Below the pieces are notes generated by a model, which worked only from the letters and a program-made list of their open reading frames with translations, did not search any database and was not told the DNA's origin. This document shows, piece by piece, positions 2,127 through 21,573 of a stretch of DNA of 21,573 nt (the stretch's first letter is position 1; each line of letters opens with the position of its first letter). The position numbers and the translations under genes are program-made. The stretch is from Armatimonadia bacterium (lineage in GTDB: Bacteria > Armatimonadota > Zipacnadia > Zipacnadales > UBA11051): contig JBDKRC010000117.1 of NCBI GenBank assembly GCA_039683575.1, positions 1 through 21,573 on the forward strand. The letters run 5' to 3'.

Positions 2127-2158
2127 GCTGAGGCCCCCCCTCGATGATCTTTGTATCA

Positions 2159-2187
2159 ATCATGCAACAACACTGCCCAACTGTCAA
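2159..2187 (-). promoter_or_regulatory. Sigma70-type promoter for the peptide/RHS unit
   Basis: Minus strand: TTGACA (2187-2182), 17-nt spacer, CATGAT (2164-2159). Confidence 0.7.
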
Positions 2188-2202
2188 GCAGAAACTGGGG
2201 CT

Positions 2203-2221
2203 GTGCAAACCCGCCTTGCAC
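2203..2221 (-). terminator. Short hairpin just after the last glycosyltransferase gene
   Basis: GTGCAA-GGCGGGT-TTGCAC lies 7 nt after the stop codon at 2229; no clean U-tract. Confidence 0.3.
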
Positions 2222-2228
2222 CTACAGA

Positions 2229-3398: not shown

Positions 3399-3448
3399 GG
3401 TTTCTCCTGTCACTGAAGTGGTACGTCTGCAGTGAAGACGCGGGCCCT

Positions 3449-6599: not shown

Positions 6600-6609
6600 G
6601 ATTTGTCTC

Positions 6610-7725
6610 TCATGACACGGCTCTCCGATATGTTTCCAGGGTCTCCAGGGCAGCCTTCTGCCAACTGAATTGCGCGGCTCGCGTCAGTCCCCGAGCCGCC
6701 AAAATCCCCCGTTTGGCTTCATCTGCGAGCAGTTCGCCCAGGCGCGCCGCCAGTTCCACGGGATTGTGTGGGTCCACCAGGATGCCTGCCTCACCTACCA
6801 CCTCGGGCAGGGAAGTCGCATTGGCAACGACCGTCGGGATGCCACTGGCCATCGCCTCCAGCGGCGGCAGCCCAAAACCCTCGTACAGCGAGGGGTAGAC
6901 AAATACGGTGGCGGCCGCATATGCCACCGGCAGGTATCTGTCCGGTAGGAAGCCTGTGATCACCGTGTGCTCACTCACTCCGAATGCTTGCAGGGCCTCA
7001 CCGGGATCATAGGCTGCGCCGCCACGGCCGCCGGCAAGCACCAGTGTTGCCCGATGCCCCTCCCGACGCAGTTGCCCGAACGCTTGCAGCAGGACATCGA
7101 TATTCTTCTTGGGCTCCAATGAGCCAACATACAATACGTAGGGGCCGTTGATGCGATATCGTTTGCGGAATTCGTTCTCCAGGATGCCACCGTAGCGCGG
7201 ATAAAAGCGATCTTGCTCCGCCGCCTCATAGATCACATCAATCTTGTCACCCGTCACTCCATATGCGTCCATCAGCGCCTGCTTGGAGTACTCCGAGACA
7301 GTGATGATACGTGACGCCAGACGCGCTGCCAGTTCGGTCCAGCGCCGCAGATATTGGCGCAGCGACGCAGCCACCAGGTCGGGGCGGGCGTGGAAGACAA
7401 CATCGTGAATGGTTGTCACCATCGGACACAGTGCGACCAATGGCAATGCAAACGTTGGATTGTGATACAGGTCGGGCTTGAGTTCCTCCAGCAGGGCGGG
7501 CAACTGCAGTTGCTCCCACGGGGCGTCGAGCATGGCTGCGGGAACACGAACCTCGCGAAAATTGGGGGCTGTCACCACGGGATGATAATGTCGCGAGGCA
7601 CTGTGCAGGACGATGAACTCATCGGCATCATTTACGCGGGCAATCGCCTTCACAAGCGAGCCGGCATAGTTGCCGATGCCGCCGCAACCACCGAAGACGC
7701 AGCGGCAGTCAATGACACACTTCAT
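6610..7725 (-). CDS. Glycosyltransferase family 4 (MtfB/WbdB-like type)
   Basis: Motifs GGIGNY, WEQLQLP, TTIHD, YVGSLEPKKN, YPSLYEGFGLPPLEAMASG. Confidence 0.92.
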   Translation of the reverse strand: MKCVIDCRCVFGGCGGIGNYAGSLVKAIARVNDADEFIVLHSASRHYHPVVTAPNFREVRVPAAMLDAPWEQLQLPALLEELKPDLYHNPTFALPLVALCPMVTTIHDVVFHARPDLVAASLRQYLRRWTELAARLASRIITVSEYSKQALMDAYGVTGDKIDVIYEAAEQDRFYPRYGGILENEFRKRYRINGPYVLYVGSLEPKKNIDVLLQAFGQLRREGHRATLVLAGGRGGAAYDPGEALQAFGVSEHTVITGFLPDRYLPVAYAAATVFVYPSLYEGFGLPPLEAMASGIPTVVANATSLPEVVGEAGILVDPHNPVELAARLGELLADEAKRGILAARGLTRAAQFSWQKAALETLETYRRAVS

Positions 7726-8420
7726 CGGTTCGCCCCCGCACCATCCCTGCCCGCGATGGCGTCATAGTCCACGAGTTGTAGCCCCTGCTCATCGATCAGG
7801 TGCTCATAGTCCCCATCGGGGTCCTCACGACGGTACAACTCGTACTTTGCCACGGTCTGCTCCCAAAAGGAATAACCGTAATGTCGGATGTAGAGGCTCT
7901 CGGCAACCGCCGCCTGCCCCTGCAGGCCCAGAATGTGTGCACCGTGGATCTTCTGCGGCGGGAAGTATATCCCCGGCTGGTTGCGAAATAGGCGGGGGTG
8001 GATGTGCCTGCCAGTCTCCTCCCCCCATTTTCCATCGATGCGATAGCGGCGCTTGTCCCTCCAGAAATGCAGCATTCGGAAGCCCCAGACGGCACATTCA
8101 TCCTGATTCAGCAGTTCAGGAAGAACCGCGGCCGCATGAGCCTCAAAGACCTCATCGATGTCCATGATCAGAATCCAATCCGGCTCCGTGTCCTTGATCA
8201 TCGCGAGCATGACATTGCGGTCGATCCCCTCGTGGAAGAAGCTCTTCTCCCAGCGCAACAGCCGAGTCACCTTGGAACATGCGCGACAGATGGAGGGCGT
8301 TGCGTCAGTGGACCCGTTGTCAAGAACCACAATCTCATCTACCACTTCACTGAGCTGATACAAACACTCCTCGGCCCACGGCTCGCCGTTCTTTACGCGG
8401 ATTCCGGCGGTCAGCTTCAT
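7722..8420 (-). CDS. Glycosyltransferase family 2 (beta-glucosyltransferase-like GT-A clade, resembling WaaE/LgtF, SunS-type and flagellin glycosyltransferases)
   Basis: Motifs IRVKNGE...ECL, VDEIVVLDNGSTDAT, DWILIMDIDE (DxD), PRLFRN, IRHYGY. No TPR tail. Confidence 0.85.
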   Translation of the reverse strand: MKLTAGIRVKNGEPWAEECLYQLSEVVDEIVVLDNGSTDATPSICRACSKVTRLLRWEKSFFHEGIDRNVMLAMIKDTEPDWILIMDIDEVFEAHAAAVLPELLNQDECAVWGFRMLHFWRDKRRYRIDGKWGEETGRHIHPRLFRNQPGIYFPPQKIHGAHILGLQGQAAVAESLYIRHYGYSFWEQTVAKYELYRREDPDGDYEHLIDEQGLQLVDYDAIAGRDGAGANR

Positions 8421-9535
8421 GCTTCTGCCCTCATCACCTGATGGTAGACCGCCATGGTGTCGCGCCCCATCCGCTCCAGTGTGAAATCAGCGGCCCGCGC
8501 CAGACCGGCCGTGACCAATGCGCGACGAAGATCATCTTGGGTCAGCACTCGATACAGCGCTTGAGCGATGTCCTCAGCGTCGTAGGGATTAACATATAGA
8601 CATGCATCACCTCCGACCTCAGGCACCGATGAGGTACGGGAGGCCACGACCGGAACCCCACAACTCATCGCCTCCAGCACCGGCCTTCCGAAGCCCTCAT
8701 AGAAGGACGGAAAACAGAAGGCGGACGCACCGGAGTACAAAGCCGCGAGTTCAGCATCAGGCACGTAGCCTGTGACGACAATCTCGCCGTGCCGGCCGTC
8801 GGGCGGCAGTATTCCCTCTGGATCGTGGACATCGGCGTCCCGGGGGCCAGCCAGGACCAGCAGGGGGCGGTCGATGTCAGTCTCCCGCAGCAACTGAAAC
8901 GCCCGCAGCATCCCCGCGACGTTCTTGCGTAATTCAACCCGACCAACGACCAGAACGTATGGCCTATCGAGCCCGTAACGCTTGCGAACAGCGATGATGG
9001 CTTCAGGGGCTGCCGGCTGAAAGACCTCATTCACCGCTTGGTACACCACCGTCATCTTCTCAGGCGGCAGGCCATAGAAGTGGGTTAGATCGCGACAGGT
9101 GTGTTGGGAATCACAGATCACATGGTCGGCACGCTCGAGCCACAGGGGAGCCCACTGCTGGAAGAAACGACACAGCCACGGCGAGGCTAGCTCTGGGAAC
9201 AGTCGGGGGATGCAGTCGTGCACGGTAGCGACATAACGGCAGGATTTGATCAGGGGCAAGCCAAAGGCCGGACTATGGTACACGTCCGCGCCCTCGGCTA
9301 ATAGCAACTCCGGCAGCTCAAGTTGCTCCCAGAGATCAGCACCGGGAATAGGCAGAAACGCGCGGTCATAATTCGACAGCGACATGAGAGGTCGGAGAGC
9401 TTCAGGGTCCCCTACAAGGGTAAAGCTCTCGGTGGTTCGGCAACGGGACAGGCCGCGCGTCAGGGCGGCGGTGTAGTGACCGATCCCTGACATGCCTGTG
9501 TTGCCGATTGAGCCAGCATTCAAAACGATCCGCAT
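8417..9535 (-). CDS. Glycosyltransferase family 4 (MtfB/WbdB-like type); first gene of the operon
   Basis: Motifs [46 protein letters not shown]. Start placed at ATG 9535 (MRIVLNAG) after GGGGGG. Confidence 0.92.
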
Positions 9536-10124
9536 ATGCCCCCCGGTTTCCCGTTGATGAGTCACGGATTTCGCCAGGAAGTGCAGAGTCACCTTCTACG
9601 AAGATTCAGAGTCGGCAGTTGCCGGAGAAATCCTCTGAAAGCCCCCCAGCACTGGACATTTCGGAGAGCCCTGGATTGCAGTACCACCGAGTTTCGGCTG
9701 ACCCCGCACGCTGCGCCTGATCCCGCTGGCTCCGTAACCAGACATATGTCCCACGTGCCCGACAGAAGGCGTGCGGAGGTCAGTTCGTGAGAAGGTGCAA
9801 CTTGCCATCCCTCCTCGCCAGCATACGCTAACGCATCTCATTTGCCCAAGGGGCCGTCAGTTGTAGATGGCGTGGATGCGATGAGGCTGCACACGCCTGA
9901 GTCATTCCTACCTTACCTCTTGGCATGCCTGTGGTGATCGTGTCCTGCAGGAAAGACGTGGCCTCGGTTGCACCTGAAGGATTTCCCTTATCCTGTGAGG
10001 AAGCAGATGTTTGGGGGGAGATTCCCAGCCTCTATCTCCGTCTCCCCCGCAGCCAATCCGCCGCAGCACTCTTCCGCCTCAGGGATGGTGCCGCTGCGCG
10101 GCCCGAAGTTCGTAGGGGGCTCCA

Positions 10125-12218
10125 ATGGCAGATCGCAATGACTTCTGGTTCCCGCCCGGAAAAGGCGTTCAGATCGGCTGGCATTTTGTACCTGATGGTA
10201 TGATCCACGTCGGCGCAGGGCTACGGGCCGTGTCCGGAGGGAGTGTGGAGCCTGCACTGATAGACCCGCGGCTGGCAATTGGTGAACCCACAGCAGGCAG
10301 CGTTCAGATCGGGTACTGGCCCTCGTACGACAGGCTGACGCCAGATTGCCGAGCCACGTATCTCAACTGGCTTGCGACGGGGCGATCTGACCCTGGCATT
10401 GACATCGGATATGTCTTCCTCTTCTTCTACGGTCTCGAGCGTCGACTATTGGTCGATTTGAAGCCCTCAGACTCCCCCACCAGTGAATGGCAGTACCTTC
10501 TCGCAGAGCTGCGTCGATTGCTGTCAATCTACGGGGCCAGCGGCTCCTTTCACGGCTACGCCTCCTCACTTATCGACTTCTGCGTGGCGCTGTCGCAACC
10601 TGTTGCTGACAATTTGCCACAACCGCCTCGCGAACGCGTCGGCTATGATCTTCCTGTTTCACTGAAGTATGCGTTAGGTACACTTTCTGCTCAGGCTAAG
10701 CCCATTCCCTGGGAGTGGGCGTTCTCCTGGTACGTCTGCCACCCGCAGACTTCCTTGCGCACACCAGCCAAACGATGTTCTAAGGAATTCAGGGCATTGT
10801 TTGGTTGGCGCTACGTTGCTGCCCTCGGCCACGGGCTCGTTGTCGAGCCCAATAAGACGATGCTGGCAGTCGAGCATCGGCCAGCCAGCGCCTCGTTCAT
10901 GGGCAGGTCGTTTGTTGCGAAAACGACAGTACCCGACGTGACAGTGCTGAAGCGCCCCTTCGCCACGGTGAGCAAGCTGGGCGAACAATGTGAACTTGAC
11001 CTTGAGCCGTTCTCCCGCTGGCTTGGCCGCAATCCCGAGCGGCGGGGGGATCTTGAGGCTGTGGCACTACTGCCGGATGAGCTTGCTCGTGGACATAGGG
11101 GCAGTGCGGTCGCAGAGATGAGGCAGTGGGCAGAGGAACGGCTCCAAAACCAGCCGAGGATCGCGCTGCAGGCAGATGACCTGCTTAAGTGGACGCCGTC
11201 TCCTGCGGCCGACAAGCTCTCCAAGAAGGAGGCCGTGCTCTTTGCCCAACTGCTCGGCAAGCTGGGCTACGGGCTTGAGCCGGACGTACGGTTTGGTGGA
11301 CCCTGCCTGAGGAAGGGGGACATGGCCACCATCTTTCGGTTGCCCCAGGACGCGGCATCAGCGGCTTCGGACGAATACTTGGCTGCGACGCTGTTGACGG
11401 ACTTGTTTGTGGCCGTTGCGGCTGCAGATGGGCAACTTGGGAAGGAAGAATACGGTCTTTTGGTTTCGCACATGAGAGACCAAATGGACTTGTCGGCGAA
11501 AGAGGCCACCCGTCTCAACGCTCATATCTGGTGGCTCTATCACGCCAAGCCGAGTATCAAGGGCATACAGAAGCTCTTCGTCGGCGTTGGCGCGGACCAG
11601 ACCAGCGCCCTTTGTCAATTCCTCACGCAGGTTGCGTGCGCCGACGGTGTCGTTTCGCCCGACGAAGTCAGCGTACTGGTGCGGGTGTACGAGATGCTGG
11701 GGCTTGACCAAGGCCAAGTTCACCGTGATATCCACTCCTGCATATCAGGAATCTCGGCACCGTCGGCCGATCCCGACAGTGCGGCGGGGGACCGGGCGCG
11801 TCGAGACGCACCAAGATCATCACTCGGTACGGAGCCTACAGGCAGCAGGCGGCAGCTTGACATGAGTCTAATTCAGCGGAAGATCGCTGAGACGGCGAAG
11901 ATCGCAGATGTGCTGACGGGCATCTTTGAGGAGGAGGACGAAGCAGTCGCGCCAGGCGCTGGCGAGCAGGCGGCGGTGAGTGTGGCGGGGCTCGACCAAG
12001 CGCATGCGCTGCTTCTTCACGATTTGCAGGAACACAATTCGCTGGCGCGGGGCCAGTTCGACGAAATGGCGGCGAGGCGTTCTCTACTTCCAGACGGGGC
12101 TTTGGACGCGTTGAACGAGGCGGCGCTGGACGCGTGTGACGAGATGGTTTGCGAAGTTTGCGGTGATGTGATTCAGGTCAATGCTGACATATTGAAGGAG
12201 ATGCTGGCGACATCATGA
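10125..12218 (+). CDS. sngA: TerB-N/TerB/TerB-C domain protein, Shango SngA-like
   Basis: TerB_N signature (GYWPSYDRLTP..RATYLNWLATGR, IGYVFLFFYGLERRL), two TerB-type ADG motifs (VAAADGQLGKEE, VACADGVVSPDE) and a TerB_C-like end (LLPDGALDALNE). Context with ATPase and helicase. Confidence 0.85.
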   Translation: MADRNDFWFPPGKGVQIGWHFVPDGMIHVGAGLRAVSGGSVEPALIDPRLAIGEPTAGSVQIGYWPSYDRLTPDCRATYLNWLATGRSDPGIDIGYVFLFFYGLERRLLVDLKPSDSPTSEWQYLLAELRRLLSIYGASGSFHGYASSLIDFCVALSQPVADNLPQPPRERVGYDLPVSLKYALGTLSAQAKPIPWEWAFSWYVCHPQTSLRTPAKRCSKEFRALFGWRYVAALGHGLVVEPNKTMLAVEHRPASASFMGRSFVAKTTVPDVTVLKRPFATVSKLGEQCELDLEPFSRWLGRNPERRGDLEAVALLPDELARGHRGSAVAEMRQWAEERLQNQPRIALQADDLLKWTPSPAADKLSKKEAVLFAQLLGKLGYGLEPDVRFGGPCLRKGDMATIFRLPQDAASAASDEYLAATLLTDLFVAVAAADGQLGKEEYGLLVSHMRDQMDLSAKEATRLNAHIWWLYHAKPSIKGIQKLFVGVGADQTSALCQFLTQVACADGVVSPDEVSVLVRVYEMLGLDQGQVHRDIHSCISGISAPSADPDSAAGDRARRDAPRSSLGTEPTGSRRQLDMSLIQRKIAETAKIADVLTGIFEEEDEAVAPGAGEQAAVSVAGLDQAHALLLHDLQEHNSLARGQFDEMAARRSLLPDGALDALNEAALDACDEMVCEVCGDVIQVNADILKEMLATS

Positions 12219-13546
12219 TGCCCGACATCAAGCCCAGAGATCGTGACGCGATTATCCAGTCCCTGCGAGCAGGGGTGGTTCCGAGAACGGGCCATCAGCA
12301 CATACAGGTAGGCCGAGCAGATGAAGTAACCGCCCTGGTCGGTGACATCGACCGCATTTCCGACGGAGGGGCTGCGATCCGCTTCATTATCGGTGAATAT
12401 GGGTCCGGCAAGACGTTCTTCCTGTTTCTTGTCCGCGCCATTGCTTTGCAGAAGAAGCTGGTGGCGACCCATGCCGATTTGGCCCCGGAGCGGCGTTTGT
12501 ACTCGACCGGCGGACATGCCCGGGCATTGTACGCCGAGCTGATGCGCAACATATCCACCCGCGCCAATCCCGATGGTGGGGCACTGCCCAGCATAGTCGA
12601 ACGGTTTGTAAGCTCAGCCCTGAATGAAGCACAAGCAAACGGCACAAACGCAAGCCGGGTGATCCAGGCACGGCTTGAGCAGTTGAGCGAGATGGTGGGC
12701 GGATATGATTTCGCGCAGGTGATTGGTGCCTATTGGCGCGGGCACGACACCGGCAACGAGGTACTGAAGTCGGATGCTGTGCGGTGGCTACGGGCTGAAT
12801 TTTCCACTCGCACCGATGCACGAGGCGCGCTGGGCGTACGAACGATCATAGATGATACAAACGCCTACGATCACCTGAAGCTCATGGCTCGTTTTGTGCG
12901 GCTGGCCGGCTTCGGCGGCTTCCTTGTCTGCATGGACGAGATGGTGAATCTCTACAAACTGACAAACACTACCGCGCGAAGTTCGAATTACGAGCAGGTT
13001 CTGCGCATCGTGAATGACGGTCTTCAGGGAATATCGTGCGGGTTGGGGATCATGTTCGGCGGGACCCCGGAGTTTCTCACCGATACGCGCAGGGGCCTAT
13101 ATAGCTACGCGGCACTGCAGTCGAGGCTTGCCGAGAATAGCTTCGCCGTCAACGGTTTGGTAGACTACTCCGGCCCTGTGATACGCCTGCCCAATCTTAC
13201 TCCCGAAGATTTCCTGGTGTTGCTGACTCGTTTGCGGCACCTGCACGCATGCGGCGATGTCTCGCGTTACCTGATACCAGACGAAGCGCTGCATGCGTTC
13301 ATGGATCATTGCTCAAGCCGAGTCGGTGACGCCTACTTCCGAACGCCGCGCAACACGATCAAAGCCTTCCTGGATCTGCTTGCTATCTTGGAGCAGAACC
13401 CAGAATCCTCGTACGTCGATCTAATTGGGACGGTGGCGATAGATCAGGAAATTAACACCGACCTGCTACCGCTAACGGACGAGGATGAACCCGAGGCAAC
13501 CGCCACGGAAGGCGATGACGATGAACTTGCCTCGTTCAGGCTCTGA
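12215..13546 (+). CDS. sngB: P-loop ATPase (DUF2791/BrxD-like), Shango SngB-like
   Basis: N-terminal IIQSLRAGVVPR, Walker A GEYGSGKT, Walker B LVCMDE, RRGLYSYAALQSRL. ATGA overlap with sngA. Confidence 0.88.
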   Translation: MMPDIKPRDRDAIIQSLRAGVVPRTGHQHIQVGRADEVTALVGDIDRISDGGAAIRFIIGEYGSGKTFFLFLVRAIALQKKLVATHADLAPERRLYSTGGHARALYAELMRNISTRANPDGGALPSIVERFVSSALNEAQANGTNASRVIQARLEQLSEMVGGYDFAQVIGAYWRGHDTGNEVLKSDAVRWLRAEFSTRTDARGALGVRTIIDDTNAYDHLKLMARFVRLAGFGGFLVCMDEMVNLYKLTNTTARSSNYEQVLRIVNDGLQGISCGLGIMFGGTPEFLTDTRRGLYSYAALQSRLAENSFAVNGLVDYSGPVIRLPNLTPEDFLVLLTRLRHLHACGDVSRYLIPDEALHAFMDHCSSRVGDAYFRTPRNTIKAFLDLLAILEQNPESSYVDLIGTVAIDQEINTDLLPLTDEDEPEATATEGDDDELASFRL

Positions 13547-15755
13547 ATTGGGTCAGTACCCCGACGGAGGGGGCGCATTCGAACAGCTGCATCCCTCGGT
13601 GCAGCGATGGGTCTATTCACGCGGCTGGTCCAAGCTGCGCGACATTCAGGAACAAGCCGTAGTGCCGATTCTGGCGGGGGAAGACGTCGTCATCGCTGCG
13701 CCAACAGCTGCCGGCAAAACGGAGGCCGCGTATCTGCCGATCTGCTCATCTATAGTGGGCGAGGAGACAACAGGCCTTAACGTCCTCCACGTGAGCCCGC
13801 TCAAGGCGCTGATCAATGACCAGTACCAGCGGCTCGAGGACCTGTGCGCCGACTTGGAGGTGCCTGTCCACAAGTGGCATGGGGACGTGGCACAGAGTAA
13901 GAAGCAGTCTGTGGTAAGGGAACCTGCTGGCATCCTGCTGATAACGCCTGAGTCACTTGAGGCGATGTTCGTCGTTAGGGGGCAGCAACTCCCGCGGCTG
14001 TTTGCATCGCTGCGTTACGTAGTGGTTGATGAGTTGCACGTCTTTCTCGATACAGAGCGAGGGCAGCAACTGCAGTCTCTCCTGCACCGGCTGGAACTCT
14101 TGCTGCGAAGGCACGTGCCCAGGATCGGGCTGAGCGCCACCTTAGGGGATATGCAACTTGCTGCCAAGTACCTGCGTCCGACCGGCAAGCATGCCCCACG
14201 GCTAATCGTGGGTGCCAGAGGAGGTAAGGAGCTTCGACTTGCTATCCGCGGCTACAAAGATACCGGGCCGGCCGCCGCCAATAAGGATGATTCCGACAAC
14301 CATCGAGTCCCCGCATCGCATGCGATTGCGGATTGCCTTTTCGAAAAGCTCCGTGGCACCAACAACCTCATCTTTGCCAATAGCCGGTCAAACGTCGAGT
14401 TGTATGCCGACCTTCTTCGCGAGATGTGCGAACAGAGGCGAGTGCCGAATGAGTTCGGCGCGCATCACGGCAACCTCTCGAAGGAGATCCGAGAGGAGAC
14501 AGAGGAGCGTCTTAAGCGATCTGAACTTCCCTTCAGCGCCGTCTGCACAAACACCCTCGAACTCGGTATCGACATAGGCAATGTCGAGAGCATCGCGCAG
14601 ATCGGATCGCCCCCCAGCGTGGCCAGCATCAGGCAACGCTTAGGGCGGTCTGGACGGGGAGAAGGCAAGCCTGCCATACTTCGGCTGTTCGTAACCGAGC
14701 GCGAACGCAACCCACGAACCCCGCCCCAGGATCTCATCAGGGCCCACCTGGTTCAGTGCATCGCGATGGTGAACCTGCTCCTACGCCACTGGTGCGAACC
14801 CTCGTCAGATCAGGCACTCCATCTCTCCACTCTCGTTCAGCAGGTGCTTTCCATTCTCGCCCAGCTTAGTGCCGCCCATCCCCAGCCGCTCTGGGAGGCA
14901 CTTTGCCGGACCGGCCCGTTCGAGCATGTTGATCAACGGACCTTTGCCCGTCTGCTCAAGAGCATGGGAACGAACGATCTGATCTCGCAAGACGCGAGTG
15001 GGATGCTCATGCTCGGAGCTGAGGGTGAGCGAATTGTCAACCATTACGGGTTCTATTCAGCCTTTGTCTCAGCAGAGGAATACCGTATTGTCACCAGTGG
15101 GAAAACTCTCGGCACCCTTCCCGTGGATTACCCCGTAACCGAGGGCATGTACATCATCTTCGCCGGTCAGCGGTGGTTAGTGCTTGCAGTCGATGGTCAT
15201 AGCAAGGTCATTGAGGTGACGCCCGCGGCCACAGGCAACGTACCCCTCTTCTCGGGCTCGGGCGGCATGATACATGATCAGGTTCGCCAGGAGATGCTGG
15301 CCATCTACCAAGCAGAAGATGTTCCGGCATTTCTCGACTCAACTGCTCGCTCTCTATTGTCTGAAGGCAGGCAATCCTTCAGGCAATTAGGCCTCAACGC
15401 ATCTCCAACTCTGCAGATGGGCAACGACATGTTGCTCTTTTGCTGGATGGGGGATCGCGTGCTGAATACCTTGTGTCTGCAGTTGGCGAACTCGGGGTTC
15501 AAATCGGCCAGGGATGGCGTCGCTATTCTCGTGGAGAACTGCACTCAGGCGGCGCTGACTGAGCACCTTCGAGTGTTGCATGCCGCTGGGCTCATGGAAG
15601 GCACAGAACTGGCCGCTCTTGCCAAGAACAAAGACAGCGAGAAGTATCATTGGTGTCTGGATGAGGAACTGCTCTGTCTTGACTACGCGTCGACGTATCT
15701 CGACCCGGTCGGTGCGGCTACTACAATCGCCAGCCTACTAATGCGCATGGAATAG
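13515..15755 (+). CDS. sngC: Lhr-like DEAD/DEAH-box helicase, Shango SngC-like
   Basis: Q motif (LRDIQ), APTAAGKT, SPLKALINDQ, TPESLE, DELH, SAT, HHG, TLELGIDIG, QRLGRSGR. Start uncertain (13485, 13515 or 13521); overlaps the end of sngB. Confidence 0.88.
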   Translation: MTMNLPRSGSELGQYPDGGGAFEQLHPSVQRWVYSRGWSKLRDIQEQAVVPILAGEDVVIAAPTAAGKTEAAYLPICSSIVGEETTGLNVLHVSPLKALINDQYQRLEDLCADLEVPVHKWHGDVAQSKKQSVVREPAGILLITPESLEAMFVVRGQQLPRLFASLRYVVVDELHVFLDTERGQQLQSLLHRLELLLRRHVPRIGLSATLGDMQLAAKYLRPTGKHAPRLIVGARGGKELRLAIRGYKDTGPAAANKDDSDNHRVPASHAIADCLFEKLRGTNNLIFANSRSNVELYADLLREMCEQRRVPNEFGAHHGNLSKEIREETEERLKRSELPFSAVCTNTLELGIDIGNVESIAQIGSPPSVASIRQRLGRSGRGEGKPAILRLFVTERERNPRTPPQDLIRAHLVQCIAMVNLLLRHWCEPSSDQALHLSTLVQQVLSILAQLSAAHPQPLWEALCRTGPFEHVDQRTFARLLKSMGTNDLISQDASGMLMLGAEGERIVNHYGFYSAFVSAEEYRIVTSGKTLGTLPVDYPVTEGMYIIFAGQRWLVLAVDGHSKVIEVTPAATGNVPLFSGSGGMIHDQVRQEMLAIYQAEDVPAFLDSTARSLLSEGRQSFRQLGLNASPTLQMGNDMLLFCWMGDRVLNTLCLQLANSGFKSARDGVAILVENCTQAALTEHLRVLHAAGLMEGTELAALAKNKDSEKYHWCLDEELLCLDYASTYLDPVGAATTIASLLMRME

Positions 15756-15810
15756 TGCCATCGCAGTAAGACAAGAGGTCTGCCGCAATCCATCATCTCC
15801 TGGGCCATCG

Positions 15811-15838
15811 GTCGTCTCCGCGCGGGCGTGGATCGAGC
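15811..15838 (+). repeat. Solitary degenerate CRISPR type I-C-like repeat (not an array)
   Basis: GTCGTCTCCGCGCGGGCGTGGATCGAGC resembles the I-C repeat pattern GTCGC-(stem-loop)-GCGTGGATTGAAAC. It is intergenic between convergent genes; no cas genes in the window. Confidence 0.4.
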
Positions 15839-15865
15839 ATGAGCCGGTCGATCTCGTACAAGACG

Positions 15866-17116
15866 CTAAGGCCGCGGCCGGTCGCCAGCATCAGGGCGGT
15901 TCGGGACCTGGTGCCCCTTTCTCCTCGGCGTCCGCACAGGTATTAGTTTCTCCTGCTCCAGGTACCGGCGGATCTCACGCACCCTCCTGCCGCCTGAGTT
16001 CAGCAGATCCTGATCGTCCTCATTCTTGTAGCCATGGAACTCGAAGCGGAGTGGGTAAAGGCCTTGCCTAAATGCTTGCCTGACCAGGTCCGCGTTCTCC
16101 GCTTGCCCCTCGGATTTGAGTAACTCCTCGATAACGAACTTCCGAAACCTCGTCGACTTCTCGAGCTCGCCGCTCTGGCGCCTATAGCGGATCGCAAAGC
16201 GGTTGAGTTGCGCGAGCCACTTTCGCTTGTTGTCGGGCGTGATCGGGACCATGTTGAAGATTGAGGTCTTCCATAGTTCGAGCTTCATTTGCCAAAGAAT
16301 CTTGTTCTGCAGATTGGCGCCGAAGTAGAACGGCAAGTAATCGAACCGTAGGCACTGAGAGAATGGTGCTGACGAGCCGGCGCGAGTAGTGGCATCTGCC
16401 GACGCGCCTCCAAACTCAGATTCGCTGTAAGCCTCCTCCATTTCCTCACGATACTCCAGCAAAGCCAGCACTCCCTCTTCCGCCAGGATGCGCTGGGCCT
16501 CCTGCGTCTCCACCTCCGGGGCGCAGCGCCAGCGTCTGCCGGTCCGCGCGCTACGCGGCCCATAGTTTAGGTGGTCGAGCCAGGGTTTCCCCTCATCAGG
16601 GATGATAAGCCCGTGCTCGATCCAGGCTGAAGCCCACTTCTGCCATTTACCCGCCCAAAGCTCCCGGTATCGATCGGTGTCAGAACAGCGTCCATCGAGG
16701 ATGTCGAGCGCTGTCACGAAGTCGAGTTCGTAGTACGGCAGTAGCCGATGACCCCAAAAGATGGGCTTCAGGGTTCCCTCCTTTGCCATCAGTTCCAGGT
16801 AGAAGTAGGGATACACCCACTCGTCATGTTCATCAGCGATCACCCCCGGATTCTGCTTGCAGAGCTCGACCAGATGCGACAAATCGATCGGCAACTTAGT
16901 GCCGCGAGGCATGCCGCTCTTCAGGGTTGACAGGGAAACGCGCAGTTGGCTGTAGTCGGCAATCGCCTGGCCGGGGAAGTTGGGCAGCGCGAACGGGGCC
17001 GTGGGCAGGATCAGCGGGTGATCTCCAAGGCGGTCTAGAATGAGGTCGCCGCGCATGAGATGCCACGGTTCCTCACGCATCGTCTCGAACAGCGAGGCGG
17101 CACTGAGATCAGCCAC
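15866..17116 (-). CDS. Hypothetical protein (~416 aa), aromatic-rich with a basic C-terminus
   Basis: Long ORF filling the space between the helicase and the recombinase. GGAGG lies 8 nt before GTG 17116, which avoids overlap with the divergent integrase. No family recognised. Confidence 0.75.
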   Translation of the reverse strand: MADLSAASLFETMREEPWHLMRGDLILDRLGDHPLILPTAPFALPNFPGQAIADYSQLRVSLSTLKSGMPRGTKLPIDLSHLVELCKQNPGVIADEHDEWVYPYFYLELMAKEGTLKPIFWGHRLLPYYELDFVTALDILDGRCSDTDRYRELWAGKWQKWASAWIEHGLIIPDEGKPWLDHLNYGPRSARTGRRWRCAPEVETQEAQRILAEEGVLALLEYREEMEEAYSESEFGGASADATTRAGSSAPFSQCLRFDYLPFYFGANLQNKILWQMKLELWKTSIFNMVPITPDNKRKWLAQLNRFAIRYRRQSGELEKSTRFRKFVIEELLKSEGQAENADLVRQAFRQGLYPLRFEFHGYKNEDDQDLLNSGGRRVREIRRYLEQEKLIPVRTPRRKGHQVPNRPDAGDRPRP

Positions 17117-17196
17117 AACGGTAACCTCCATGAATGCGGACAAGTGTGCGGTCTTGTCCGCTGCGCTACCCCCAGGCGAGCTGCGACAATCGTAGC

Positions 17197-18384
17197 ATGC
17201 CAACTCCGGACGAACCCAAACTCCACGACAGCGCGAAGTTGGAAGCTTGTCAAGAGCATTCATCTCCCCTTGTGGTGGACGCACGTAGGGTGTTGCCCGC
17301 ACCGGAGGACCGGGTGGTTCCAGGCGGTTCCGCCGTTGCTCCTGACCGCGCCCGTCGGGGCGCGACCGAAAAGAGCGGCATCGGCCTGAGTGAAGCTGTC
17401 GAACTTCTTGAAAATCACGCGGCCAATGGTCGGCGCCTCTCCCCCCTTACGGTCTCAGCCTATCGGGGCGATTTGCTCGCCTTCGCCGCCTGGCGGGAAC
17501 GAGAAGAGCTGTCCCTACAGGTTGAAAAGGTTCTGCCCGCGGAGATTGAGAGCTACCTCGCCGACTGCCCCGAGGCCAGCCCCGCTACTCTTCGGCGGCG
17601 CCTCGATGCCCTCTCCAGTCTCTACAAGTTCCTGCTCAAGCGCGGCCTGGCGGACAACAATCCGGTCGTGCAAGTTGACCGTCCCCGGTTGCCGGACAAC
17701 CGCCGCGCCTACCTCACTGAAGAGCAGATGGGCCAATTGGCCGCAGTCGTTGAAGACACTCCCAAACGGGCCATGCTGCTCCTGCTATGTCTGCTCGGGC
17801 TTCGTCGCTCCGAGATCGTGAACCTCAACTGCGGGGACATCGACCTCACCGCCCTGCGCCTGGAGATCATCCAGTCCAAGGGCGGACACTCCCGCACGCT
17901 ACCCATCCCCGCCGACCTGGAGCCGGTACTCCGGCATCAGTTGGCGGACAGGGACGGCGCGCCCGGCGAGCCACTCTTCCTCTCCCACACCAAGAGCCGC
18001 CTCTCGCGCTCGGTGCTGGCCCGCGCCTTCAGCAAGTGGCTCGCACTCGCCGGGCTTGAGGGGCTTGGTCTCTCCCCACACTCATGCCGCCACGGCGCGG
18101 CTTCGAGGTGGCTCAAGGCCGGCCTCACCATCACCGAAGTCCAGGCCTTGTTGGGCCATCGCGATTCATCTACGACCGGAAAATACTGCCACGCCTCGCT
18201 TGATGAAATCTCCGCCGCGATGTCGGACAAGCTGCGGCCCCTGGGCCAGCAGGCGCCGGCAGCCAACGCCGCAGTGGATGGCGAGTGGGGTGAGGTGCTG
18301 GCGGAGCTCACACCAGAGCAAGATGCCGCCCTACTCTCCCTCGCCCGTTCGATGCTGGCCCCGGCGCACGCCAGAGCGCCGTAG
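17197..18384 (+). CDS. Tyrosine recombinase/integrase (XerC/D-like fold) with N- and C-terminal extensions
   Basis: SAM-like N-terminal region (LSPLTVSAYRGDL, SPATLRRRLDALSSLYKFL, NP) and full catalytic set: GLRRSE (R), SKGG (K), HSCRH (H-x-x-R), LLGH, TTGKY (Y). Start uncertain (17134, 17197 or later). Confidence 0.9.
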   Translation: MPTPDEPKLHDSAKLEACQEHSSPLVVDARRVLPAPEDRVVPGGSAVAPDRARRGATEKSGIGLSEAVELLENHAANGRRLSPLTVSAYRGDLLAFAAWREREELSLQVEKVLPAEIESYLADCPEASPATLRRRLDALSSLYKFLLKRGLADNNPVVQVDRPRLPDNRRAYLTEEQMGQLAAVVEDTPKRAMLLLLCLLGLRRSEIVNLNCGDIDLTALRLEIIQSKGGHSRTLPIPADLEPVLRHQLADRDGAPGEPLFLSHTKSRLSRSVLARAFSKWLALAGLEGLGLSPHSCRHGAASRWLKAGLTITEVQALLGHRDSSTTGKYCHASLDEISAAMSDKLRPLGQQAPAANAAVDGEWGEVLAELTPEQDAALLSLARSMLAPAHARAP

Positions 18385-18417
18385 AAACCTACTCTCTTCA
18401 GCCGCTGCAATGATGAT

Positions 18418-18431
18418 AGAACAAACGTTTG
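18418..18431 (+). promoter_or_regulatory. Putative LexA/SOS box of the GAAC-N4-GTTY type
   Basis: AGAAC-AAAC-GTTTG lies between a possible -10 region (CAATGATGAT) and the RBS GAGAGGAG of the 69-aa ORF. Confidence 0.55.
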
Positions 18432-18443
18432 AGAGGAGTCAAG

Positions 18444-18653
18444 ATGATGAACAAGCAGCCCAATAACCGGCTGAGTCTGCACTCGGAACAGGGCGGAACA
18501 AATGAGTCACCAGGCTCAGCGTCGACGCTGGAGGGCTTCGCTGGGCTTCTCGCCCAGACCGCCGCGCAGCACGGCCTCAGTGACGCACCAGTGGAAGCGC
18601 AAGAGAGCGATATTCAGCCTGCAGACGACGGTTGCGAAAGCCATACGGCGTGA
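18444..18653 (+). CDS. Small acidic hypothetical protein (69 aa)
   Basis: Strong RBS AGAGGAG before ATGATG at 18444; sits between the two recombinase genes. Confidence 0.5.
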   Translation: MMNKQPNNRLSLHSEQGGTNESPGSASTLEGFAGLLAQTAAQHGLSDAPVEAQESDIQPADDGCESHTA

Positions 18654-18679
18654 GGCGGCTCAATGCAGTCAGCGCAGCC

Positions 18680-18738
18680 AACCCATACAACTCGCTCAGG
18701 AGCCCCCCAAAGCCCTACACGGCTATGTTGTATTGGTT
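18680..18738. repeat. Imperfect inverted repeat, 12-bp arms with a 35-nt spacer
   Basis: AACCCATACAAC (18680-18691) and GTTGTATTGGTT (18727-18738) are complementary at 11 of 12 positions. Confidence 0.6.
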
Positions 18739-18765
18739 TAGCATGCAATGAAAGTATATCAATGC

Positions 18766-18814
18766 TTGACGAAACAGTTGCACTAAAATACAATGCAACT
18801 CAGGGAACAGGAGG
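18766..18814 (+). promoter_or_regulatory. Near-consensus sigma70 promoter of the serine recombinase, with an overlapping palindrome and RBS
   Basis: TTGACG (18766-18771), 17 nt, TACAAT (18789-18794). Palindrome AGTTGCA-N11-TGCAACT at 18776-18800. RBS AGGAGG at 18809-18814. Confidence 0.8.
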
Positions 18815-18820
18815 CAGAAG

Positions 18821-20905
18821 GTGACTACGAATGCAGCGGTCGAGCAGAGGCCCATCCGCAACGTCGGCCTCTACATCAGATACTCCACCGAAGAGCAGAA
18901 GGCCAAGTCCTTCTCGGAGGAGATGCAGACTGAACAGTGCCTGCAACGCTTCGAGGCGGTCTACGGTAAGATCCCCCACAACCTGCGGGTGTTCAAGGAC
19001 CTCGGCAAGTCTGGCGCCATTGGCCTGGACAACCCGGCCTTCGGGGGCAAGGAACACCGTGAAGGCCTCGAGGCTCTCCTCAACGCGATGGCCGACGGCG
19101 AGTTGGACCTGGTACTGTGCTATAGTCAGGACAGGTTAGCCCGCGACGAGTTCCTCTGGCACTACATGAACGCCACGATCTTCCAGAAGCATCGCATCCC
19201 GATCCTCTTCGCCCGGGAGGGGCATGATCTTCTCACTGAGGAGGGGCAGATGATCGGCACCCTCCACGCTCTCGCCGCGTCTCTGGAGCGGCGCAAGGCC
19301 AGCCGCAACGTCGTGGCCTCGTGTCAGCGCCGGGCGTCGGAGGGTTACCTCACCTTGCCGCCCTACGGGTGGGAATTCGACCCGACCCAGGTACCCGGCC
19401 CCCGTGTGCGTCGGCGCATCGTGTGCAACGAGGCCGAGGGCGCCATCCTGCTCGAGAGCTTCAGCCGGTACACGTCCGGATGGCCGACGGCCGAGATGGT
19501 GCGCGACCTCAACGGCCGGCGCATCCTGTCGCCCAGCGGCGGTCACAACTGGACGACCGACGGGTTGCTCAAGGTACTGGCTAACCCGGTGCATGCGGGC
19601 CTCGTCAGGCACAAGAACCGGCTCTATCCTGGCCAGCATGCCCCGCTGCGATACTGGTCGCCCGAGCAGCGGGACCTGCTCCTACTGCGCATCGAGGAGC
19701 GGCGCGACCACCCCCTCAAGATCAAGGCGGTCGAGGACTACCTGCTGGCCGGCATTCTCTTCTGCAAGCACTGTGGCCGGCGCCTGGTTGCCAACCGCAG
19801 CTGGCGCCGCAATGTGCAGCAGTACAGCTGTCATTCGCCACAGACCGAGGGCCAGCATCGGCGCCGCGGGAAGGACGGGAAGCTCGGGGACGTCCGGTCG
19901 TGCCCGGGCATTTCGCGCCGCGCCGATGAGTTGGAGGCGGCAATCATCCAGGCCGTGCGCGACCTCGCCAACTCCCCGGCGGTGCAGAAGATGGCCCAGG
20001 ACCGCCTGCAAGCGGCAATGGACGAAAAGGATACCCGCCTACAGGATGAGCTGGCCGGGGTGACCAAGGAGGTCGCCCGCGTCCAGCAGGGGTTCACCCG
20101 GCTCTTCGCCATGCTGGACGAAGACAAGATCCAGCCCGACGAGTTCGAGGCCGAGAACGACCGCCGCCGAGCCGAGCAGGAGGCGCTGGAGAATCGGCGG
20201 GCCCGCCTGGAGGCCGAGATCGCCCAACGCCGCAGCCGGCTGGCGGAGTTGACGGCCGCGCTGGAGCTACTGCGCGACTTCGACCGCCTATGGGACAAGA
20301 TGACGATGGGAGAGCGCAAGGAACTCCTGCGCCGCATCGACCCGCACATGACCATCCGGCGCGAGGACGATCTTCACATCGTCACGATCCGCCCCGGCTG
20401 GACCGAGCCCATCGAGATCACGTTCGTGTGTCGGCCGAGGACGAAGTCCTGGACCCCCGGCCCGGACGCACCGTTGACCAGGGCGCAGATCTCCCTGCTG
20501 TGGTGCTGGCGTGAAGGCATGGCCCTCGACGAGATCGCGCAGGCGCGGCACATCGCTTTGACGACGGTCTGGTGGATGCGGGACCAAATCTACAAGCGGC
20601 TGTTGGTCAAAGACCTCGACGAGGCGGTCGAGTTGGTGAAGGGTCGACTGGATCGGTGCCGCAAGACGGTCAAGACGGAGGGCCGGTTCAACAGACGGCC
20701 CGCGCAGAACCCCACCGTGCTGTCCGAGCCGTTGATGGCGGTCCTGCGCCTCATGGCCGAGGACAATAGCGGCAACGAGATCGCCGCGGCCCTCAAGAAG
20801 GACAAGAGCACCGTGAGCCGGCAAATGACGGCCATCTGTAACCGGCTGGCGGTCCACAGTCGCGACGAGGCCGTGGCGCGGGCCCGTGAACTCGGGCTGA
20901 TCTGA
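18821..20905 (+). CDS. Large serine recombinase (resolvase, recombinase, Zn-ribbon and coiled-coil domains) fused to two C-terminal LuxR/NarL-type HTH domains
   Basis: YIRYST (catalytic Ser22), DLGKSG, YSQDRLAR, PPYGW, LANPVHAG, YLLAGILFCKHCG..YSC..SC, then a coiled coil. C-terminal LTRAQ..L...REG...DEIA...IALTTV...IYKRL and LSEPL..VLRLMAE..SGNEIAAAL..STVSRQ...ICNRLAVHSRDEAVARARELGLI. Confidence 0.9.
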   Translation: MTTNAAVEQRPIRNVGLYIRYSTEEQKAKSFSEEMQTEQCLQRFEAVYGKIPHNLRVFKDLGKSGAIGLDNPAFGGKEHREGLEALLNAMADGELDLVLCYSQDRLARDEFLWHYMNATIFQKHRIPILFAREGHDLLTEEGQMIGTLHALAASLERRKASRNVVASCQRRASEGYLTLPPYGWEFDPTQVPGPRVRRRIVCNEAEGAILLESFSRYTSGWPTAEMVRDLNGRRILSPSGGHNWTTDGLLKVLANPVHAGLVRHKNRLYPGQHAPLRYWSPEQRDLLLLRIEERRDHPLKIKAVEDYLLAGILFCKHCGRRLVANRSWRRNVQQYSCHSPQTEGQHRRRGKDGKLGDVRSCPGISRRADELEAAIIQAVRDLANSPAVQKMAQDRLQAAMDEKDTRLQDELAGVTKEVARVQQGFTRLFAMLDEDKIQPDEFEAENDRRRAEQEALENRRARLEAEIAQRRSRLAELTAALELLRDFDRLWDKMTMGERKELLRRIDPHMTIRREDDLHIVTIRPGWTEPIEITFVCRPRTKSWTPGPDAPLTRAQISLLWCWREGMALDEIAQARHIALTTVWWMRDQIYKRLLVKDLDEAVELVKGRLDRCRKTVKTEGRFNRRPAQNPTVLSEPLMAVLRLMAEDNSGNEIAAALKKDKSTVSRQMTAICNRLAVHSRDEAVARARELGLI

Positions 20906-20927
20906 ACCCGTTGTACCATCGCCATAC

Positions 20928-20966
20928 CCGGCGGCCTGGGCCTGAAGTCCGGGCCGCCGGTGCTTT
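20928..20966. terminator. GC-rich hairpin between convergent genes; probable (possibly bidirectional) intrinsic terminator
   Basis: CCGGCGGCCTGGGC-CTGAA-GTCCGGGCCGCCGG (14-bp stem with two G-U pairs), followed by TGCTTT. Confidence 0.75.
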
Positions 20967-20968
20967 CG

Positions 20969-21573
20969 TCAGAAGAGTGTCAGCGCCGGTTGCTGCCGTT
21001 GGGGCGGAGCGGCTGTGGCCCGCGACCGCCGCACTTGCTCGCCCGGCAACCTACTGCTCGGGATGTCGGGCGGCCAGTATGGCAACAGGCTGTCCTTGAT
21101 GAGGTATTCGACGCCCGGCTTGCTGTTGAGGGCGGGGATGAGCCTGTCCACGAAGGCCTGCCAGTCAATCTGCTCCACCCGCGCCCGAAGCTCGGGCTCG
21201 AGCAGATGCAGGTGATTGAGTTTGCCGATCTTCCACGCGTCCACATGCGGCGCCGCGTGCTCAATCAGTTGGAGGGCCTGGTCGGGATCGATCACCGGCT
21301 CCAACGACAGCCATGTCCTGACCCCCGCGTCATGCGCGATCGTCAGCGCCTGCAGACGGTCCTCGATGGGTGACGCCCCCGGCTCCCATAGCTGACGGTC
21401 CGCGTCATCCATGAAGATGATGGTTTGCCCCAGCCACCCGCCTCCTGCGACGAAGAGGGGAACATCATCCTGCATCGCCTGCAAGCCGTTCTTCGTGCAG
21501 ACCTGCCAGGGCAGATTGTGTTCGTTGAGAAGCTGCAGGGCCTGCCGCGTCAGACGATGTTCACGCTCTGCCG
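20969..21573 (-). CDS. Radical SAM protein, spore-photoproduct-lyase-like (SplB/Rv2578c-related), C-terminal part; 5' end outside the window
   Basis: The frame is open to the right edge: AEREHRLTRQALQLL...QVCTK...WEPGASPIEDRLQAL..AHDAGVRTWLSLEPVI...KIGKLN. The CxxxCxxC motif is not visible because of the truncation. Confidence 0.75.
   Translation of the reverse strand, partial: AEREHRLTRQALQLLNEHNLPWQVCTKNGLQAMQDDVPLFVAGGGWLGQTIIFMDDADRQLWEPGASPIEDRLQALTIAHDAGVRTWLSLEPVIDPDQALQLIEHAAPHVDAWKIGKLNHLHLLEPELRARVEQIDWQAFVDRLIPALNSKPGVEYLIKDSLLPYWPPDIPSSRLPGEQVRRSRATAAPPQRQQPALTLF

Follow-up and report, generated by a model that had tools for sequence, protein, structure and literature searches.

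RESULTS

A large serine recombinase carries two LuxR-type domains at its C terminus

The window analyzed here, a 21,573-base stretch that is the whole of contig C117 in a 6.23-Mb, 352-contig genome of the phylum Armatimonadota, encodes a large serine recombinase (LSR) whose reading frame continues into a tandem pair of LuxR-type helix-turn-helix (HTH) domains (18821..20905, plus strand; 694 amino acids [aa] plus stop, as defined by the open reading frame [ORF], Pfam, alignments, and a structural model). We consider it very probable that this protein is an active LSR with a real LuxR tail. The broader reading that we favor, to which we give a probability of roughly 0.5, is that the tailed enzyme is an active integrase or resolvase, that its tail reads repeats around its own promoter, that it represses its own gene, that a small protein docks onto it, and that it belongs to a three-gene recombination module.

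The gene is the sole long frame in its interval, with 694 codons and a GTG start preceded by GGAGG (18809-18813) at a distance of 7 nt, and an 18-sequence alignment places the start at the same position in relatives. All four Pfam families found on the protein exceeded their curated cutoffs: Resolvase at aa 17-175 (E = 1.2e-15, 58.3 bits, cutoff 23.3), Recombinase (PF07508) at aa 206-268 (E = 5.6e-05, 23.8 bits, cutoff 21.1), Zn_ribbon_recom (PF13408) at aa 308-380 (E = 1.7e-08, 35.2 bits, cutoff 25.3), and GerE in two stretches, the better of which covered aa 634-686 (E = 1.7e-12, 47.2 bits, cutoff 23.5). PF07508 scored higher in relatives than in the window LSR. The catalytic (resolvase) domain with its helix E (aa 14-173; 18860..19339, plus strand), which was delimited by Pfam Resolvase, conserved residues, and the model, contains the nucleophile S22. 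It is followed by a recombinase domain (aa 204-295; 19430..19705, plus strand), defined by PF07508, the model, and Foldseek matches to solved serine integrases, and by a zinc-ribbon domain (aa 301-383 and 496-536; 19721..20428, plus strand), defined by PF13408, four Cys residues, and the model, into which a coiled coil (aa 386-485) is inserted.

The residues expected of a working enzyme were retained throughout the family. In the 18-sequence alignment, D104, R105, and R108 and the zinc ligands C315, C318, C337, and C361 were invariant, and Y18, R20, and S22 were at least 90% conserved, the single miss being an N-terminally truncated sequence. When a 21-sequence alignment reaching 20% identity was examined, Y18, R20, S22, R105, and R108 were invariant, and the zinc ligands were again conserved. 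Since the catalytic residues do not vary even at this distance, the family appears to consist of enzymes under selection rather than relics.

The full-length AlphaFold model (predicted local distance difference test [pLDDT] score of 85.6) showed a canonical serine-integrase body at aa 14-536, in which long helices at 386-433, 439-468, and 470-485 formed the coiled coil and the return strands of the zinc domain reached aa 536. It matched solved serine-integrase complexes, including those of Bxb1 and PhiC31, with Foldseek E values of 8e-19 to 1e-12 (structural matches 9dxh, 9y66, 9iu2, 9tep, and 4kis), at only 13 to 19% identity to solved LSRs; a search by sequence alone matched only the TP901-1 catalytic domain (E = 1.3e-4). 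By fold and domain order, then, the protein is a large serine recombinase, and the intact LSR that had been described from the sequence in an earlier note on this DNA (Ser22, recombinase domain, four-Cys zinc ribbon, and coiled coil) is borne out by Pfam, alignments, and model alike.

The tail comprises a first LuxR-type HTH (HTH1; aa 554-612; 20480..20656, plus strand), recognized by Pfam, profile, and models, and a second (HTH2; aa 636-690; 20726..20890, plus strand), recognized by Pfam GerE, alignment, and fold match. These bounds lie close to those proposed in the earlier note (aa 551-608 and 633-694), and the C terminus, for which that note had given the pattern SRxEAVxxAxxxGLI, reads SRDEAVARARELGLI. 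A model of the last 175 residues (pLDDT, 87.7) consisted of a beta-hairpin followed by two four-helix units, and it superimposed on the DNA-binding domains of VraR, GerE, LiaR, DegU, and ComA with template modeling (TM) scores, relative to the target, of 0.83 to 0.95 and root mean square deviations of 0.7 to 1.1 A over ~61 residues. The Foldseek E values for the tail were only 2e-3 to 5e-2, because the query consists of two domains. The tail sequence profile matched the DNA-binding domains of DesR, NarL, GerE, and VraR (E of ~1e-13), and within this comparison with PDB domains the first unit separately matched VraR, TraR, and EvgA. Both units thus match the LuxR/FixJ/NarL (GerE) family in sequence and fold, but they differ from those regulators in lacking a receiver or autoinducer-binding domain and in standing in tandem, attached to an enzyme. 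The last 145 aa, which the earlier note had allowed might prove to have no GerE- or LuxR-like match or fold, therefore have both.

In the full-length model, pLDDT fell below 50 at aa 541-543 and 624-629, between confidently predicted domains, which suggests that the tail HTHs sit on flexible linkers. The two HTHs also differed in their conservation: in 18 sequences of the close family, K660, K662, S663, T664, S666, R667, and Q668 of the HTH2 recognition helix (KDKSTVSRQ) were invariant, whereas the recognition helix of HTH1 had no invariant residue. In distant subfamilies, the HTH2 helices differ, and three relatives have a third HTH.

The fusion recurs in a continuous frame across many relatives

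A word-indexed search recovered 21 relatives, of which 17 were full length (43 to 85% identity) and came from different contigs. PF00196 was listed in 16 of these 17, the remaining one aligned across the tail, and the junction was read through in one frame in every full-length relative. When 301 genomes of the phylum were searched in six frames, 24 gave matches at E <= 1e-20, with three matches each in genomes G167, G122, and G243; many were open frames of ~680 to 720 aa along which the whole query aligned at 23 to 31% identity, and all 10 of the distant frames scanned in this identity range contained Resolvase, Recombinase, and GerE. When a tail-only profile was searched against 1.84 billion representatives, 99 matches were obtained at E <= 1e-30. 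A domain scan of all 40 proteins of 550 to 850 aa among the best 150 tail-profile matches identified Recombinase in 25, Zn_ribbon_recom in 23, and Resolvase in 20, the remaining ~15 being LuxR HTH arrays. At least 25 clusters at 50% identity carry the LSR-LuxR fusion.

The fusion could in principle be an artifact, either an assembly chimera, as the earlier note had considered, or two genes, one for an LSR and one for a LuxR protein, run together by a frameshift; that note asked for read support across 20440-20480 and whether homologues keep two genes. A contig from an unrelated public run bridges 20271-20578, and homologues retain one gene: the frame is continuous in the 17 close full-length and 10 distant relatives, from different samples and genomes, and in the clusters just counted. 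Nothing was found in favor of an artifact, which is already refuted and to which we leave practically no probability; the one irregular relative, L022, is the opposite case, a frameshift that splits the tail off.

The age of the fusion was addressed with a quick maximum-likelihood tree of the recombinase core (aa 10-540, tail excluded; 61 rows, midpoint root), in which the 43 tailed rows fell in one clade (Shimodaira-Hasegawa-like approximate likelihood ratio test, 97) together with a lone "tail-less" row, L022. Since the DNA past the L022 stop codon still encodes an HTH in another frame, this topology fits a single gain of the tail, with the caveat that the rows of the tree were picked by similarity to the query or its tail.

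Named tailed members were confined to Armatimonadetes/Armatimonadota metagenome-assembled genomes (MAGs), one "Candidatus Zipacnadia" MAG (a class of Armatimonadota), and one Abditibacteriota isolate. None of the 336 phage records having a match reached the tail, and only 1 of the 103 matching plasmid records did so. The ESM Atlas contained ordinary LSR clusters only and no large cluster with this domain set, and a word-indexed profile search with a broad alignment found no tailed members beyond the first word-indexed set. We found no description of an LSR with a LuxR tail in the literature, most subscription journals being outside the coverage of that search. By these phage and plasmid, ESM Atlas, and literature checks, the architecture, which the earlier note had considered might turn out to be common and characterized, is neither.

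The tail-profile matches also included giant LuxR/GerE HTH-array proteins (P0044 to P0050, P0053, and others). P0045 (2854 aa) had 14 GerE stretches, P0047 (3836 aa) had 9 together with an N-terminal WXG100-like domain and an HATPase_c_2 domain, and P0044 (7703 aa) had 20 matched stretches.

A tyrosine recombinase gene and a small ORF precede the tailed LSR gene

Upstream of the LSR gene lies a gene for an Xer-like (simple) tyrosine recombinase (17134..18384, plus strand), identified by Pfam, NCBIfam, and catalytic residues. Translation probably begins near 17300, given that ~55 codons at the start of the frame overlap a divergent gene and fail to align with relatives. Pfam matched Phage_integrase (E = 4.3e-33) and Phage_int_SAM_1 (E = 3.2e-09), and the best NCBIfam models, XerC, XerD, and XerA, all remained under their cutoffs (146.9 and 138.7 bits for XerC and XerD versus cutoffs of 335 and 330), so that the protein is a relative of XerC/XerD and yet neither of the two. 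R224, K249, H316, R319, H342, and Y351 were invariant in nine tyrosine recombinases of 28 to 51% identity.

Fifteen loci had enough upstream DNA to judge the position of this gene, and in 11 of them (the window, L004, L029, L040, L041, L042, L044, L046, L047, L048, and L051) it immediately preceded the tailed LSR gene in the same orientation. In one protein, P0158, a deletion has fused the N-terminal part of the tyrosine recombinase with a piece of the LSR that comprises the recombinase, zinc, and HTH parts, a by-product of the adjacency of the two genes.

Between the two recombinase genes is a small ORF (18444..18653, plus strand), supported by position, profile, and complex model, whose 69-aa product has a central amphipathic helix (LEGFAGLLAQTAA) and an acidic tail. 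An ORF of 59 to 72 aa with the same central helix and acidic tail occupies the same place in all eight close loci. In the region just upstream of distant LSR genes, a profile of the small ORF matched at E < 1e-3 in 3 of 12 loci and more weakly, at E of 0.016 to 0.045, in 3 more.

When LSR residues 300-694 were modeled in complex with the small protein, using for each its own alignment, the interaction prediction score from aligned errors (ipSAE) was 0.64, compared to 0.00 for the best of three controls. Of 80 solved complexes, 58 reach the mark used for this score, as do 2 of 110 mismatched pairs, a rough guide given that our own alignments were used. The runs shared at least 75% of contacts, and the partner pLDDT was at least 52. 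Small-protein residues 24-47 were predicted to contact LSR residues 382-399, 476-506, and 525-527, where the coiled coil exits and re-enters the zinc domain, and the LSR contact surface includes the family-invariant residues A383, A392, L477, L484, W491, M494, and E498. Recombination directionality factors (RDFs) act at the base of the coiled coil, as known from work on PhiC31 gp3. The model thus supports binding of the small protein to the base of the LSR coiled coil, and this protein is a candidate for an accessory or directionality factor.

Repeats of conserved order and spacing frame the LSR promoter

A sigma-70-type promoter of the LSR gene (18766..18794, plus strand), consisting of TTGACG, a 17-nt spacer, and TACAAT, matches at 10 of 12 positions and is the sole plus-strand promoter-like site in 17000-21573; its -35 and -10 elements align among relatives. 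Around it lie three copies of a 9-bp motif, CAATRCAAC. Repeat A (18685..18691, plus strand) reads ATACAAC and can be extended to CCATACAAC from 18683; repeat B (18727..18735, minus strand) reads GTTGTATTG, the reverse complement of CAATACAAC; and repeat C (18791..18799, plus strand), which reads CAATGCAAC, overlaps the -10 hexamer.

All three repeats are present in each of the eight close loci, in the order A(+), B(-), C(+), with 41 to 42 nt from A to B and exactly 67 nt from B to C, and the sequence between them has diverged (mean column identity of 53% in the upstream region). In the upstream alignment of the relatives, the GTTG core of repeat B and the T-A-A-T-C-A-A-C columns of repeat C were invariant. 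The word T/A-R-CAAC was counted 31 times across the eight 200-nt upstream regions, compared to 3.0 +/- 1.8 (maximum, 11) in 2,000 shuffles and to a density in coding sequence of 0.31 per 200 nt. Each of the pairs A..B and B..C is found a single time in the 6.23-Mb genome, at the LSR locus in both cases. The motif by itself is not enriched: CAATRCAAC was found 21 times in the genome versus ~40 expected from composition, and ACAATGCAAC at <=2 mismatches matched the window 10 times versus 15 expected, with only the matches at 18727 and 18790 falling within the module.

The HTH2 recognition helix is invariant across the same loci that retain the repeats, and distant subfamilies, with their other HTH2 helices, lack the repeat pattern. 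This fits helix and motif changing together, although relatedness alone could explain it. We consider the conserved repeats over the LSR promoter to be candidate sites that fit autoregulation or accessory sites for directionality, two of the three roles that the earlier note had suggested for the tail, the third being targeting of integration. The promoter region also joins differently related halves, since a public contig was ~97% identical to the window over 18214-18771 and ~83% identical from 18908 on, and since in L029 the tyrosine recombinase is 88% identical to that of the window and the LSR 71%.

The surroundings of the module vary and are rich in defense genes

Outside the genes of the module, the flanks of the loci share little. 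In the window, a complete three-gene Shango system (SngABC; 10125-15755, plus strand) lies just upstream of the recombinase module, with PADLOC E values of 9e-75 for SngA (a TerB_N/TerB/TerB_C protein), 2e-175 for SngB (a BrxD-like ATPase), and 7e-271 for SngC (a DEAD helicase). Defense genes in the flanks of other loci encode PLD-SNF2, Cas3, type IIG restriction-modification, and SbcC-like ATPase proteins. PADLOC gave only weak HTH matches for the LSR and none for the tyrosine recombinase, its 478-aa neighbor, or the downstream gene. The 478-aa protein (15866-17302, minus strand) had no Pfam, NCBIfam, or PADLOC match and is encoded divergently from the tyrosine recombinase in three loci, namely, the window and the distant L042 and L047. 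A protein of >1100 aa is common to the flanks of two loci.

Downstream of the LSR gene, a GC-rich hairpin with a 14-bp stem (20928..20960, no strand assigned; folding energy of -37.2 kcal/mol, z of -2.9) separates it from a convergent radical-SAM-like gene. The hairpin is conserved in L027, L028, L034, L035, and L054, with three different flanks beyond it, and is probably a two-way terminator. Homology between close loci stops 50 to 120 bp past the LSR stop codon, which in the window is just beyond the hairpin. The radical-SAM-like gene (20969-21571, minus strand) is partial, running off the contig end, and matches the PA0069 radical SAM family below the cutoff (NCBIfam E = 4.8e-07); it adjoins the LSR 3' end in the window and L035, and L027 shares ~90 bp of the downstream DNA of the window.

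Several copies point to DNA that moves or decays. A tailed LSR is carried on the circular 102,890-bp plasmid pIAD-21, and in L035 the LSR copy is cut by an IS21-type IstB gene. On another contig of the same genome, C120 (L054 7938-8240; L002 1438-1743), a 101-aa ORF is 68% identical to LSR aa 615-694 and is followed by a P-loop NTPase gene and then by a 76%-identical paralogue of the radical-SAM-like gene of the window. The C120 ORF matches the tail of the L034 type, and the NTPase gene that follows it is the same one; it is therefore what is left of a second, L034-type copy, and we rejected its interpretation as a stand-alone, trans-acting regulator or as an unoccupied target. These multiple, decayed, and plasmid-borne copies, together with unrelated, defense-rich flanks, are hallmarks of mobile or variable DNA.

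Comparisons of loci gave no clean insertion site. When 1600-21573 of the window was compared with five genomes of the same genus or family, only short glycosyltransferase matches were seen, with no synteny and no empty site, and comparison of L040 with three same-genus genomes yielded scattered short repeats and no clean empty site. In the L004/L030 pair (91% identical), homology stops ~117 bp past the stop codon with no recognizable att feature there, and a repeat search of 15500-21573 for element ends returned short, chance-level pairs only. Matches in public runs were all contigs, with no run exceeding 10% of the sampled words, and are uninformative on excision circles, expression, and habitat; two contigs from RNA libraries fall on the tyrosine recombinase and radical-SAM-like genes and carry no evidence on LSR expression.

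The contig looks compositionally mosaic, given the contrast in G+C content between a glycosyltransferase cluster with an RHS-repeat gene (1-9600; 0.57 to 0.61) and the LSR gene (0.66 to 0.68; genome mean, 0.635). In other loci, short dispersed repeats of L040 (G122:C2), 50 to 170 bp long and 72 to 95% identical, recur on dozens of contigs of G080, G176, and G219 and look like miniature mobile elements, and in L041 (~6360-7340; G167), the DNA immediately past the tailed LSR gene contains a tandem-like repeat with a ~70-bp period, visible as many offset self-matches of 72 to 77% identity.

DISCUSSION

A proposed three-gene recombination module

Our analyses suggest the following scheme. One ancient event would have added a C-terminal pair of LuxR/NarL-type HTHs, on flexible linkers, to a competent LSR. 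The tailed integrase, transcribed from its own promoter, would form a three-gene recombination module with the Xer-like tyrosine recombinase and the small, helical, acidic protein, and this module would reside in variable, defense-rich DNA and, in at least one case, on an Armatimonadota plasmid. The conservation of the tyrosine recombinase and small ORF, neither of which the earlier note had recognized as a partner, argues for such a module rather than for a lone odd enzyme. We infer three things here: the tail recognizes the repeats as its binding sites, the small protein sets the direction of recombination, and the module serves to move or resolve DNA. The CAATRCAAC repeats would be read chiefly by HTH2, since its recognition helix is the invariant one, and occupancy of repeat C would block the -10 element, so that the integrase would repress itself. 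Repeats A, B, and C could then double as accessory sites that position the enzyme in a multisite assembly beside its own gene, comparable to res sites II and III of small resolvases or to the arm sites of lambda Int, while the small protein might gate the coiled coil in the manner of a recombination directionality factor and the tyrosine recombinase might serve a second reaction (integration versus resolution). A stronger version of this scheme, in which a heterobivalent serine recombinase reads res-like accessory repeats with its tail, has its coiled coil gated by the small protein, and is part of an obligate two-recombinase module that moves or resolves defense islands and plasmids across Armatimonadota, is one that we put forward tentatively and think is probably too strong.

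Several observations weigh against the favored reading. The tyrosine recombinase is absent beside the tailed LSR in L045, L049, and L050, the second of which is among the distant loci with a small-ORF-like match, and it is downstream of the LSR in L043. The conservation of the motif and its spacing is partly inheritance, the eight loci being relatives. In 12 distant loci, the pattern A-42-B-67-C (any 7-mer, <=1 mismatch) was found in none, in a search that recovered the window and matched 0.3% of shuffled regions, so that the repeat architecture either is limited to the close subfamily or differs elsewhere. Other readers of the repeats are conceivable, namely, the recombinase or zinc domains of the enzyme, the tyrosine recombinase, or a host factor, and the 352-contig genome has no second copy of the repeat region. 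Because LSR-RDF complexes solved in 2026 appear among the structural matches of the LSR model, the score of the small-protein complex may partly reflect likeness to them. Finally, neither att sites nor direct repeats nor element ends came to light in the window or in the same-genus and close-pair comparisons, and for the window copy, mobility or resolution is something that we infer.

The geometry of the repeats also invites the proposal that they mark a crossover, with the B-to-C dyad (18727-18799) or the A-to-B dyad (18685-18733) serving as an att site or res site I; the tail HTHs would then bind the outermost 9-bp motifs and thereby extend an ordinary ~50-bp site, autoregulation being a by-product. 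The outer edges of the inverted A and B repeats are 47 to 49 bp apart, the usual size of an LSR attP, and att and res sites usually adjoin the recombinase gene. Repeats B and C form an outward-facing dyad at the fixed 67-nt spacing in all eight loci, its arms agree in the window at 10 of the first 13 positions and again at TGCAA, and the switch in identity to the public contig at ~18771 is 8 bp off its center. The inner parts of the dyads are, however, poorly conserved in relatives, 73 bp exceeds any known LSR site, the site is single copy in the genome, and a hybrid attL or attR would put the tyrosine recombinase and the LSR in different elements, in conflict with their conserved linkage. We therefore regard a crossover at the repeats as unlikely.

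Two further explanations dispense with a link between tail and promoter repeats or with mobility itself. The tail could be a targeting device that tethers the integrase to LuxR-box-like sequences in the recipient, the promoter repeats being unrelated regulatory elements. This would agree with the differing flanks of the module and with the correlation, in Durrant et al. 2022 (PMC10083194), between extra C-terminal domains and changed target choice in other LSRs. The locus comparisons recovered no insertion junctions or target sites, CAATRCAAC is not enriched in the genome (21 versus ~40), and the invariant HTH2 helix goes with repeats beside the LSR gene itself, leaving targeting a quite improbable explanation. 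Alternatively, the protein might be a domesticated recombinase that acts chiefly as a transcription factor, or else a DNA invertase by which neighboring genes are switched, instead of a mobile-element integrase. A LuxR tail and operator-like repeats over the promoter are what such a protein would have, and recombinases beside defense genes are reported to be able to work as switches (PinQ; PMC12529663). Conservation of the catalytic residues, the zinc ligands, and the coiled coil nevertheless extends to 20% identity, the predicted partner resembles a directionality factor, copies are multiple, decayed, and plasmid borne, and the repeat search found no inverted repeats bracketing a gene or promoter at a workable distance; we judge a regulator or invertase to be very unlikely. 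The favored reading thus remains that of a tailed integrase or resolvase operating from repeats at its own promoter.

Comparison with known recombinases

The Bxb1, PhiC31, SPbeta-type, Listeria A118/LI, and TP901-1 integrases have the same domain order and catalytic Ser/Arg set as the tailed LSR, which differs from these phage and element enzymes in its ~150 extra residues with two LuxR-type HTHs and in being paired with a tyrosine recombinase gene. The closest NCBIfam model to the LSR body was that of XisF, the LSR that excises the Anabaena fdxN element (E = 6.4e-18), but at 64.9 bits versus a cutoff of 375 the protein is not a member. XisF requires the small accessory proteins XisH and XisI, and to our knowledge it has no LuxR tail.

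The tailed LSR can be compared functionally, by analogy only, with two other systems. Tn3/gamma-delta resolvase binds fixed, unequally spaced sites upstream of its own gene and over the promoter, through which it represses itself and builds a selective synapse, and hybrid elements joined at res are known for Tn3-type systems. The repeats of the tailed LSR may work similarly, and the mosaic joint at its promoter parallels the res hybrids. Small resolvases, however, use a single HTH for all sites, whereas the tailed LSR has the full LSR DNA-binding body plus two HTHs, and it falls outside the Tn3 resolvase family on account of its size, its recombinase domain, and its zinc ribbon. Compared to Tn3 res, moreover, only half-site-like 9-mers are conserved at its locus, and no second res copy was found in the genome. 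In lambda-type tyrosine integrases, a separate, linker-tethered domain reads arm sites near the crossover, much as the tail might; lambda Int belongs to another catalytic family and fold and has its arm-binding domain at the N terminus, whereas the additional domains here are C-terminal LuxR HTHs.

A C-terminal addition that follows the zinc ribbon and coiled coil has a precedent in the TnpX/TndX-type LSRs, whose DUF4368 (PF14287) is linked to site choice (Durrant et al. 2022). DUF4368 is not a LuxR HTH, it had no match on the tailed LSR (Pfam, E up to 1), and ESM Atlas structure neighbors carrying it aligned to residues 2-585 only. In Durrant et al. 2022 (PMC10083194), DUF4368 was present in 63% of a multitargeting clade versus 0.73% of site-specific LSRs, the typical architecture was given as Resolvase/Recombinase/Zn_ribbon, and only candidates of 400 to 650 aa were retained, a filter that would exclude the tailed family. 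The linkage to a tyrosine recombinase, the small protein predicted to dock, and the promoter-framing repeats of the tailed LSR are new here.

Implications

Serine integrases are valued for genome engineering because of their short sites and independence from host factors, and the recombinase domain, zinc domain, and coiled coil alone are thought to account for their site choice and directionality. If the stronger version of our scheme is true, the tailed LSR would be the first serine integrase to rely on accessory DNA-binding domains of its own for selecting sites or for directionality. An ancient clade with two added HTHs, a predicted partner, and a multirepeat promoter site suggests a different control logic, which we propose to be self-repression combined with dependence on accessory sites, as in resolvases or lambda Int. 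Such logic, if confirmed, could be borrowed for more selective or switchable integrases. The gene, annotated merely as encoding a "hypothetical protein" in the one complete record found (pIAD-21), would with its two neighbors also provide a three-gene marker for variable, defense-rich DNA in a poorly studied phylum.

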